Below are positions 2,622 through 3,890 of a DNA stretch of 4,159 bases, one piece after another (position 1 is the stretch's first letter; the number at the start of each line of letters is the position of its first letter). Below the pieces are notes generated by a model that saw only the letters and a program-made list of their open reading frames with translations, had not been told where the DNA came from and ran no database searches. The position numbers and the translations under genes were made by a program. This DNA comes from a virus (taxonomy: Duplodnaviria; Heunggongvirae; Uroviricota; Caudoviricetes). Where the stretch lies: the IMG/VR virus record IMGVR_UViG_2534681835_000023, positions 1 through 4,159 of that record, one strand, 5' to 3'.

Positions 2622-3890
2622 ATGGCAGTAAAGATTTCAGGTGTACTGAAAGACGGCACAGGAAAACCGGTACAGAACTGCACAATCCAGCTGAAAGCAA
2701 AACGTAACAGCACCACGGTGGTGGTGAACACGCTGGCCTCAGAAAATCCGGATGAAGCCGGGCGTTACAGCATGGACGTTGAGTACGGTCAGTACAGCGT
2801 TATTCTGTTGGTGGAGGGATTCCCGCCGTCACATGCCGGGACCATCACCGTGTATGAAGATTCTCAACCCGGTACGCTGAATGATTTTCTCGGTGCCATG
2901 ACGGAGGATGATGCCCGTCCGGAGGCATTGCGACGTTTTGAACTGATGGTGGAAGAGGTGGCGCGTCACGCTGAGGAGGCGAAGAAGAATGCCGGAGAGG
3001 CGGAGACGTCAGCGAGGAATGCCGGCATATCAGCCAGTCAGGCAGAAGAGAGCGCTGCAAATGCTGACACTTCAGCAGGGGAGGCATCGGAGTCAGCCCG
3101 GCAGGCGGCAGAAAGTGCAGCCTCAGCAAAGCAGTCAGAGGATGCGTCCTCGTCCTCGGCTTCTGCGGCCGCTCAAAAAGCCAGTGAGTCATCACAAAGT
3201 GCAGCAGAAGCTGAATTGTCAAGAAAGACGGCAGAAAGTGCAGCCGGTAATGCAGCCAGGGATGCAACGACCGCAACAGAAAAAGCCCGGGAGTCAGCAG
3301 AAAGCGCACAGTCAGCGGAACAAAGCAGGATAGCGGCGGAAGAGGCCGTAAACCGAATCCCCACCGTGGTGGGACCACCCGGACCAAAGGGAGAACAGGG
3401 GCCCGCGGGTCCTCAGGGGCCGAAGGGTGATAAGGGAGAGCGTGGTGACACCGGCCCTGTCGGGGCAACCGGCGAACGGGGACCGGGAGGAGATACAGGT
3501 CCGGCAGGTCCGCAGGGGCCGAAAGGCGACAGGGGAGAGCGGGGAGAGACCGGGCTGACAGGAAGTACAGGTCCACAGGGACCGAAAGGAGAAACAGGTG
3601 CGGCTGGCCCGGTGGGGGCAACCGGACCTCAGGGACCGAAGGGCGACCCGGGGGAGACACAAATCCGTTTTCGTCTGGGGCCGGCGAGCATTATTGAGAC
3701 AAACAGCAATGGCTGGTTCCCGGGTACAGATGGCGCACTCATCACCGGACTGACCTTTCTTGACCCCAAAGATGCCACACGGGTTCAGGGTTTTTTTCAG
3801 CATTTGCAGGTCAGGTTTGGTGACGGGCCGTGGCAGGATGTCAAGGGGCTGGATGAAGTGGGCAGTGATACAGGCAGAACAGGAGAATGA
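2622..3890 (+). CDS. stf: Side tail fibre protein (lambda Stf-like N-terminus) with Ala/Ser/Glu-rich linker, collagen-like Gly-X-Y domain and small C-terminal globular domain
   Basis: ATG at 2622 preceded by GGGG(TG). The N-terminus [26 protein letters not shown]...[14 protein letters not shown]...[20 protein letters not shown] matches the conserved lambda Stf N-terminal domain as recalled. This is followed by a low-complexity A/S/E-rich segment, 32 uninterrupted Gly-X-Y triplets and a ~77-aa C-terminal domain. Stop TGA at 3888-3890. The ORF-track start at 2616 (GTG) is probably 2 codons too long. Confidence 0.88.
2960..3350 (+). repeat. Low-complexity Ala/Ser/Glu-rich coding region inside stf
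   Basis: Translation [82 protein letters not shown]... It contains a 17-nt direct repeat, cggcagaaagtgcagcc, at 3106-3122 and 3229-3245. Confidence 0.7.
3372..3659 (+). repeat. Collagen-like triple-helix repeat region (32 consecutive Gly-X-Y) inside stf
   Basis: Translation [96 protein letters not shown] with no break in the Gly-X-Y register. The DNA is GC-rich and internally repetitive (recurring cagggRccgaaRgg units). Confidence 0.9.

Follow-up and report, generated by a model that had tools for sequence, protein, structure and literature searches.

A collagen-like prophage side tail fiber of the EPclA type and its small PfC-only neighbor

Identity of the fiber gene

Analysis of a 4,159-nucleotide stretch of a Caudoviricetes virus (IMG/VR record IMGVR_UViG_2534681835_000023, positions 1 to 4,159; hereafter the window) identified the gene at positions 2622..3890 of the plus strand, on which all features described here lie, as a prophage side tail fiber with a collagen-like shaft, of the known EPclA type that is common among pathogenic Escherichia coli in their lambda-like prophages, with little that is new. 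The gene very probably codes for the side tail fiber of an EHEC-type E. coli lambda-like prophage, occupying the stf position downstream of J and lom, and belongs to the EPclA family. Domain content, the collagen repeat, genomic position, near-identity to EPclA, and variation in repeat number were all established directly. The EPclA family was described and biochemically studied in 2012, is annotated routinely by NCBI, and is present in several copies per Shiga-toxin-producing E. coli genome.

The open reading frame extended from ATG 2622 to TGA 3888-3890 and coded for 422 aa; lambda Stf and the relatives begin with MAVKISG, and two residues would be gained from an in-frame GTG at 2616. The HMM domain search proposed in the initial annotation returned PF08400 (prophage tail fiber N-terminal; aa 1-133, E 3.9e-69, profile positions 1-133 of 134), PF01391 (collagen), and PF06820 (prophage tail fiber C-terminus; aa 348-411, E 1.1e-36, profile positions 1-64 of 64), all three far over their curated Pfam cut-offs (231 vs. 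26.6, 56 vs. 27.2, and 125 vs. 25 bits, respectively). The coordinates, frame, and segment sizes of that annotation agreed with these results (N-domain approximately 100-117 aa, Ala/Ser/Glu-rich segment approximately 133 aa, and tip 76 aa), and the gene is annotated in the closest genomes as “prophage tail fiber N-terminal domain-containing protein.” Antisense open reading frames at 2845-3660 and 3312-3893 were considered as genes and rejected, as they overlap a strongly supported sense gene under selection and fall in stop-poor, G+C-rich repeats. A terminator-like GC hairpin with a T-run (2584..2605), a pattern match only from a consensus scan, was situated between lom and the fiber gene, immediately before the GGGG-TGA ribosome-binding region.

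EPclA, represented by ECs2717 and Z0982 in the lambdoid prophages of E. coli O157:H7, has the architecture PfN-PCoil-Col-PfC (Ghosh et al., 2012; PMC3368898). The window protein displayed the PF08400 N-terminus, an Ala/Ser/Glu-rich PCoil of 117 aa (aa 134-250, compared to approximately 116 aa in EPclA), one unbroken (Gly-X-Y)n run with n = 32, and the PF06820 C-terminus, and its gene lay in a lambdoid tail module with J and lom upstream, the full tail operon being present in a 99.7% identical locus. Global alignment with the commonest EPclA allele among the IMG/VR loci, of 437 aa, gave approximately 98% identity outside one 15-aa deletion, including 112 of 117 residues in PfN, all 133 in PCoil (here aa 118-250), 92 of 96 in Col, and 75 of 76 in PfC. 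A single residue, Q259 at a Y position in place of P, separated the protein from RefSeq WP_097585976.1, and RefSeq alleles one residue away came from a TccP2-carrying prophage of O111:H8 and from bovine E. coli. The exact 422-aa sequence was absent from a collection of 15 billion proteins, which is a matter of one residue. The fiber had been called chimeric, and it is indeed a mosaic, but as the old and very widespread architecture of the EPclA family rather than by an event at this locus.

Attachment domain and coiled-coil shaft

The PfN domain (2622..3020; aa 1-133 by Pfam, PF08400) comprised a globular, beta-rich tail-collar attachment part at aa 1-94, followed by aa ~95-133 that were already helical. 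BLASTP aligned the N-terminus with lambda orf-401 at 78% identity over 160 aa, with similarity ending at approximately aa 160, and residues 1-94 matched the “Tail fiber protein” chain of Ur-lambda (PDB 9E7M, chain Ta, and 9MGH; E 9e-53), supporting the proposal that the N-terminal ~100 aa are the Stf attachment domain. In Ur-lambda, Stf residues 1-94 form a beta sheet and a helix, and 12 copies constitute a collar at the gpV/gpM junction from which four trimeric fibers leave, making adsorption faster while not being essential (PMC12617516).

The Ala/Ser/Glu-rich PCoil (3021..3371; aa 134-250) was assigned as a trimeric coiled-coil shaft from composition, periodicity, an AF2 monomer model, and identity to the PCoil of EPclA. 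Ala, Ser, and Glu made up 29, 17, and 16% of aa 101-250, respectively, and the strongest periodicity of Ala, of Ala/Ser, and of hydrophobic residues over aa 96-250 was 3.5 residues, corresponding to heptads. The AF2 monomer placed helices at aa 95-171 and 177-245, with pLDDT averaging 64-90 in blocks of 10 residues across aa 111-240, such that the helical region begins at approximately aa 95, ahead of PCoil itself. The full-length monomer had a mean pLDDT of 53.6, with approximately 30 on Col as expected, and was useful solely for the helix call at aa 95-245. The coiled-coil assignment was consistent with the PCoil of EPclA, a trimeric alpha-helical coil that acts as a trimerization module and melts at ~52 C (PMC3368898), and with the Ala/Ser/Thr-rich proximal coiled coil of 290 residues (102-393) in Ur-lambda Stf, modeled from cryo-EM/cryo-ET and AlphaFold3 (PMC12617516). 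The initial annotation had read this stretch as a linker replacing the lambda shaft, which was contradicted by the similarity to Stf running to approximately aa 160 and by the coiled coil of Ur-lambda. Its broader description of a modular fiber with replaced shaft and tip held as to modularity, with only the distal shaft and the tip differing from lambda. Selection on both N-terminal parts was purifying, as judged from pN/pS values of 0.14 for PfN and 0.34 for PCoil.

Collagen repeat and its variation in length

The Col segment (3372..3659; aa 251-346), supported by PF01391, was the single Gly-X-Y run in the fiber, and a regular-expression count gave exactly 32 triplets, unbroken and in frame, as the initial annotation had stated. 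Chance could not produce 32 consecutive triplets that each begin with Gly. The X position was occupied by Pro (47%) and Asp/Glu (38%) and the Y position by Lys/Arg (31%), Thr (28%), Gln (16%), and Pro (6%). These preferences reproduced the EPclP values of Table 4 in PMC3368898 (X Pro 48.1, X Asp/Glu 35.6, Y Lys/Arg 31.0, Thr 20.2, Gln 14.5, and Pro 7.4), and the earlier description of the run as rich in Pro, Lys, Glu, and Arg was roughly right, except that Thr is the commonest Y residue. The Col of EPclA gives a triple-helix CD signal that melts at 42 C (PMC3368898).

Internal repeats were evident within Col at the nucleotide level. A gapless repeat finder detected three diverged copies of a 99-nt (11-triplet) repeat (3381-3454, 3480-3553, and 3579-3652; span 3381..3652) with a spacing of 99 + 99 and identities of 61-74%, a periodicity found with this tool only, as Tandem Repeats Finder reported no strict array in the fiber gene; shorter 15-residue repeats were also present. 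The 15-aa difference from the 437-aa EPclA corresponded in the global alignment to an in-frame deletion of 45 nt (five triplets) with its junction at approximately 3561..3575, whose exact position is ambiguous because it falls between GPQGPKG(D/E)TGAAGP repeats.

A comparison of triplet number across relatives, as the initial annotation had suggested, revealed runs of 4 to 38 triplets among 120 database homologues. The value of 37 was by far the commonest in 80 viral contigs (31 of the 60 fiber ORFs found beside the small ORF described below), with the other fiber ORFs having 11 to 38 triplets and some being truncated without a run. The 32-triplet form was present in at least three complete genomes. 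Col lengths of 63, 78, 81, 114, and 144 aa had been listed previously (PMC3368898), and the 11-triplet and 15-residue repeats fit the length classes differing by 5, 10, and 11 triplets that were tabulated in 2012 (PMC3368898). Changes in triplet number offer a simple natural means to alter fiber length that could be exploited in engineered phages.

The C-terminal tip

PfC (3660..3887; PF06820), a C-terminal knob of 76 aa, is the trimerization and nucleation module and the presumed receptor-binding tip. The folding requirements of so small a tip had been regarded as open, a question largely answered by the finding that the PfC of EPclA is a trimerization module and that Col-PfC refolds quickly after melting (PMC3368898). 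An AF2 monomer of the tip based on a 21-sequence alignment yielded no confident fold (pLDDT 59.8 and pTM 0.40), and AlphaFold likewise gave no confident PfC fold according to the phi24B preprint. A PDB sequence search returned no solved PfC relative, its matches being the lambda Stf N-domain and generic collagens only. A profile search for distant relatives assembled 267 clusters in two subfamilies, tip and stand-alone, that added little alignment depth, and among the 120 of these clusters that were listed, every protein with a named source was from E. coli or Escherichia albertii.

In 45 distinct DNA versions, the fiber-tip PfC had a pN/pS of 0.20, its variable residues clustering at a few positions. 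With regard to its target, the phi24B preprint argues that the closely related gp61 tip probably does not bind BamA and that no triggering signal could pass along a shaft of collagen, and it cites work in which the lateral fibers of lambda_2B8 do not recognize BamA of MG1655.

A small PfC-only gene downstream

Immediately after the fiber gene, an ORF coding for a stand-alone PfC paralogue was identified (3911..4159; PF06820 E 4.3e-36) that had 82 aa in the window and 89 aa in most relatives. The protein was 39% identical to the fiber tip, matched PHROG 576 at profile positions 8-89, and was found as an exact sequence on 992 contigs. Across 44 distinct DNA versions, pS was 0.13 and pN 0.006 for the PfC part, and the resulting ratio of 0.04 indicated strong purifying selection on the protein.

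The usual start of this gene survived in the window as a remnant (3892..3903), as seen from the junctions in 80 IMG/VR loci, the O111:H8 genome, and the three closest genomes. In relatives, the 89-aa form (MNILKKLMQRL...) begins with an ATG one base past the fiber stop, preceded seven bases upstream by a GGAG. The corresponding MNILKKLM... reads ATG AAC GTC TAA in the window, where two 1-nt deletions, one of them in an A7 run (A6 here, 3902-3907), have broken the start. The three closest genomes also carried A6 for A7, breaking the usual start, and with one further base missing in the window, all that remains there is the 82-aa ORF beginning at an internal Met. A joining of the fiber to the small ORF by programmed fusion was considered and rejected, there being no in-frame path across the TGA; Mondal et al. 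also found no fiber/small-ORF fusion in Sp5 (PMC5155283).

The counterpart in phage Sp5, ORF68, is among the non-essential late genes and has been proposed as a reservoir for tip variation (PMC5155283), and one database protein (P0176) was a chimera of the tip and stand-alone PfC types. The stand-alone PfC is the sole mildly unexplained part of the locus. It is conceivable, albeit on balance doubtful, that the gene is a functional partner of the fiber maintained by selection and not a silent spare cassette. Such a partner may, for example, cap or co-assemble with the PfC tip, serve as a Tfa-like folding helper, or alter tip binding, and its 5' A7 run could act as an on/off switch. If so, EPclA fibers would be two-component adhesins.

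Genomic context and distribution

The fiber gene was preceded by lom, coding for an Ail/Lom outer-membrane protein (1957..2556; PF06316 E 3e-119), and by the 3' part of the central tail fiber gene J (1..1890; Pfam Ig_J, Phage_Tail_Tip, and Ig_GpJ_C), which was split over three frames by indels at approximately 660 and 1351 relative to NZ_CP077465, only the former of which sits in a homopolymer run. The whole window shared 99.7% identity with a prophage in strain 8E of E. coli O111:H8, where the locus ends a complete tail operon and adjoins a tRNA-Ser gene and an EspF-repeat effector gene, for which the two next-closest genomes give the annotation TccP2. An effector gene on the opposite strand follows the stand-alone PfC in the closest genomes. 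Both E. coli prophages and the inducible phage 2B8 had J, lom, fiber, and PfC ORF in this order within complete tail modules.

Matches to the window occurred in 4931 of 5426 complete E. coli genomes, at a median of three places per genome and up to 18, while 141 phage records had a place spanning 80% or more of the fiber protein. Stx1a, Stx2a, and Stx2c converting phages, BP-4795, and inducible phage 2B8 were among the best of these records. The receptor of the PfC tip and the role of the stand-alone PfC bear on how lambdoid prophages carrying toxins and type III effectors find their hosts.

Proposed function and alternative explanations

By analogy with near-identical EPclA proteins and with lambda, three chains would join into one fiber. 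Their PfN domains would enter a twelve-subunit collar round the tail tube at the gpV/gpM junction and so give rise to four trimeric fibers, a geometry borrowed from lambda and not from the window phage. Recombinant EPclA forms a trimer that comes apart when denatured, and the molecule is dumbbell-shaped with a hinged stalk (PMC3368898); trimer, coiled coil, triple helix, and trimerization by PfC have been established by others on such near-identical proteins, and the trimer and collagen triple helix would carry over to the window protein from those experiments. Past a flexible hinge, the 32 Gly-X-Y triplets would form an unhydroxylated triple helix, probably stabilized by X-position Pro and charged residues as the authors of PMC3368898 suggest, while the 76-aa PfC would trimerize C-terminally and could nucleate folding or refolding of the helix. 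As the distal knob, PfC would most likely touch the cell surface first, in a reversible manner, and accelerate adsorption before J binds its receptor, and slippage or recombination between the internal repeats would set triplet number and tune shaft length. The accessory role in adsorption, receptor binding by PfC, and tuning of length are what we infer for this fiber.

The receptor-binding part of this proposal could be misplaced, with the fiber being a passive spacer capped by PfC for folding and trimerization and recognition being left to another protein that docks on the tip, either the product of the downstream stand-alone PfC gene or an unrelated protein. The mere 76 aa of PfC, its sole demonstrated activity in Col trimerization and refolding, the doubts of the phi24B authors that a related tip binds BamA, and a stand-alone PfC that is almost always adjacent and strongly constrained (pN/pS 0.04) all agree with a spacer. 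Such a division of labor was nevertheless judged distinctly unlikely, given that the homologous ORF68 belongs to the non-essential late genes of Sp5 (PMC5155283), that the window and the three closest genomes have a broken version of the usual small-gene start and an intact fiber, and that the tip has few recurrent variable positions, as expected of a surface in contact with a receptor. The gene might otherwise be an intact passenger in a defective prophage that builds no fiber of its own and serves as raw material for recombination with other lambdoid prophages. The prophage may indeed be unable to build a tail given the two J frameshifts, unless these are sequencing errors, and J and lom are annotated as pseudogenes in strain 13E0725; the median of three and maximum of 18 matching places per E. 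coli genome and the chimeric protein P0176 would also suit recombination among prophages. This appears unlikely, as either J indel, of which just the one at ~660 lies in a homopolymer run, could be a sequencing error, the 99.7% identical locus NZ_CP077465 has an intact J of 3477 nt, and the fiber ORF itself is intact.

A bacterial surface adhesin or virulence factor acting on an animal host, in the manner of streptococcal Scl1/Scl2 or Bacillus BclA, would share the collagen repeat, and the location in a pathogen beside TccP2/EspF-like genes for type III effectors as well as the appearance of BclA among the PDB sequence matches could be taken to point to it. The BclA match was limited to the collagen repeat (aa 277-339), no LPXTG motif was found, and inspection of the sequence revealed no signal peptide and no cell-wall or outer-membrane anchor motif. 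With an N-terminus that is the phage tail-collar domain PfN, a position within the late tail operon, and expression tied on the available evidence to phage induction (PMC3368898), such an adhesin is extremely improbable, and the side tail fiber of a lambda-like prophage was retained as the best explanation.

Comparison with known fibers

The fiber shares with lambda Stf (orf-401/orf-314) the position after lom and the N-terminal collar domain, nearly identical over residues 1-94, and the likeness reaches into the start of the Ala/Ser-rich coiled coil. Lambda Stf has a longer modeled coiled coil, a hinge, a gp37-like OmpC-binding distal domain, and the assembly gene tfa, whereas the distal part of the window fiber is a collagen helix with PfC, replacing the Pf2 repeats (PF03406) and gp37-like tip of lambda, and the next gene is a PfC paralogue instead of tfa. 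The Pfam matches of the window fiber included neither PF03406 nor another fiber-tip family. No tfa was found directly downstream, where the next ORF coded for a protein with PF06820 only.

Among collagen-like fibers, EPclB of short-tailed Stx2 phages (933W L0121, Sp5 ORF67/ECs1228, and phi24B gp61) shares the PCoil, Col, and PfC modules and likewise has a small PfC-only gene behind it (Sp5 ORF68, 89 aa). It is mounted on a podovirus tail, unlike the window fiber, and antibody labeling placed the fiber of Sp5 at the tail end (PMC5155283). The one Gly-X-Y run of the window fiber set it apart from EPclB, as did the lack of a PF03406 match. EPclD and other peptidase-S74-tipped fibers of Shigella and E. 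coli prophages have this PfN-PCoil-Col scaffold as well, at 78-95% identity across the part in common, with a PF13884 intramolecular-chaperone module at the C-terminus where the window fiber has PfC, and several C-terminal modules, including PF06820 tips, PF13884/peptidase S74 tips, and others, were found on the shared PfN-PCoil scaffold. EPclA agreed with the window fiber in both the four-part PfN-PCoil-Col-PfC layout and the location downstream of J and lom within a lambdoid prophage, the two differing in the length of the shaft, with 37 triplets, a Col of 111 aa, and 437 aa in the common form of EPclA compared to 32 triplets, 96 aa, and 422 aa in the window protein.

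The small PfC gene and diversification of the fiber tip

A stand-alone PfC-domain open reading frame (window 3911-4159; 82 aa) lies 3' of the side tail fiber gene, and its product shares 39% identity with the fiber tip. It was retained in nearly all of the related loci and its PfC part displayed a pN/pS of 0.04 with pS at 0.13; this near-universal conservation combined with the low pN/pS at that level of synonymous variation points to a function at the protein level. In the Stx2 phage Sp5, the counterpart gene ORF68 is non-essential (PMC5155283). The gene usually starts at an ATG one base past the fiber stop codon, preceded by GGAG and encoding MNILKKLM at the N-terminus. 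This start is disrupted in the window by two single-base deletions within 3892-3910, one of which falls in a run of seven adenines. Six adenines are present at this site in the window, in the three genomes closest to it, and in 3 more of the approximately 80 junctions taken from the fetched loci. The A-run could be a slippage-prone on/off site for the small PfC gene.

Comparison among homologues revealed that few positions of the fiber PfC tip (window 3660-3887) hold most of its variation, namely RLGP(AS/GN/MS/MR), S(N/H/Y)G, P(G/D)T, L(D/A)P, T(R/Q)V, and G(F/L/M/V)F, with the variants recombining into many combinations. This pattern is as expected if the variable residues were exposed and possibly contacted the receptor. 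The 92 aa database homologue P0176 joins an N-terminal half from the stand-alone PfC to a C-terminal half from the fiber-tip PfC, and is either a natural recombinant of the two paralogues or an assembly artifact.

Integrity of the J gene and the lom flanks

The coding sequence of the J central tail fiber gene (window 1-1890) is split across three reading frames. Compared with the 99.7% identical O111:H8 locus, J carries one additional A within an A-run at ~660 and lacks one A at ~1351. Either the prophage is defective or the assembly contains errors. Both J and lom carry pseudogene annotations in the related strain 13E0725. Terminator-like GC hairpins paired with T-runs, identified by pattern match only, were found on one side of lom at window 1908-1927 and on the other at 2584-2605, an arrangement consistent with lom as a moron that is expressed separately within the late operon.

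Cargo downstream of the fiber module and antisense reading frames

The regions 3' of the fiber module were compared among relatives (L001 12286-14199; L084/L085 from 4785; L083 4806-7311). They carry type III effector cargo comprising TccP2/EspF-repeat and an EspV fragment, followed by tRNA-Ser and the hya operon. In the inducible phage 2B8, an NleG effector precedes a tail fiber assembly (tfa-like) gene located ~3 kb past the fiber, a gene order that looks as if cargo insertion had separated the fiber from an old tfa.

Opposite the repeats of the fiber gene that encode the Ala-rich and collagen segments, the minus strand contains two long open reading frames (window 2845-3660, 271 aa; 3312-3893, 193 aa). 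These most likely arose incidentally, since the sequence is repetitive, G+C-rich and poor in stop codons. A comparable annotated antisense open reading frame is found in lambda, where orf206b overlies orf-401.
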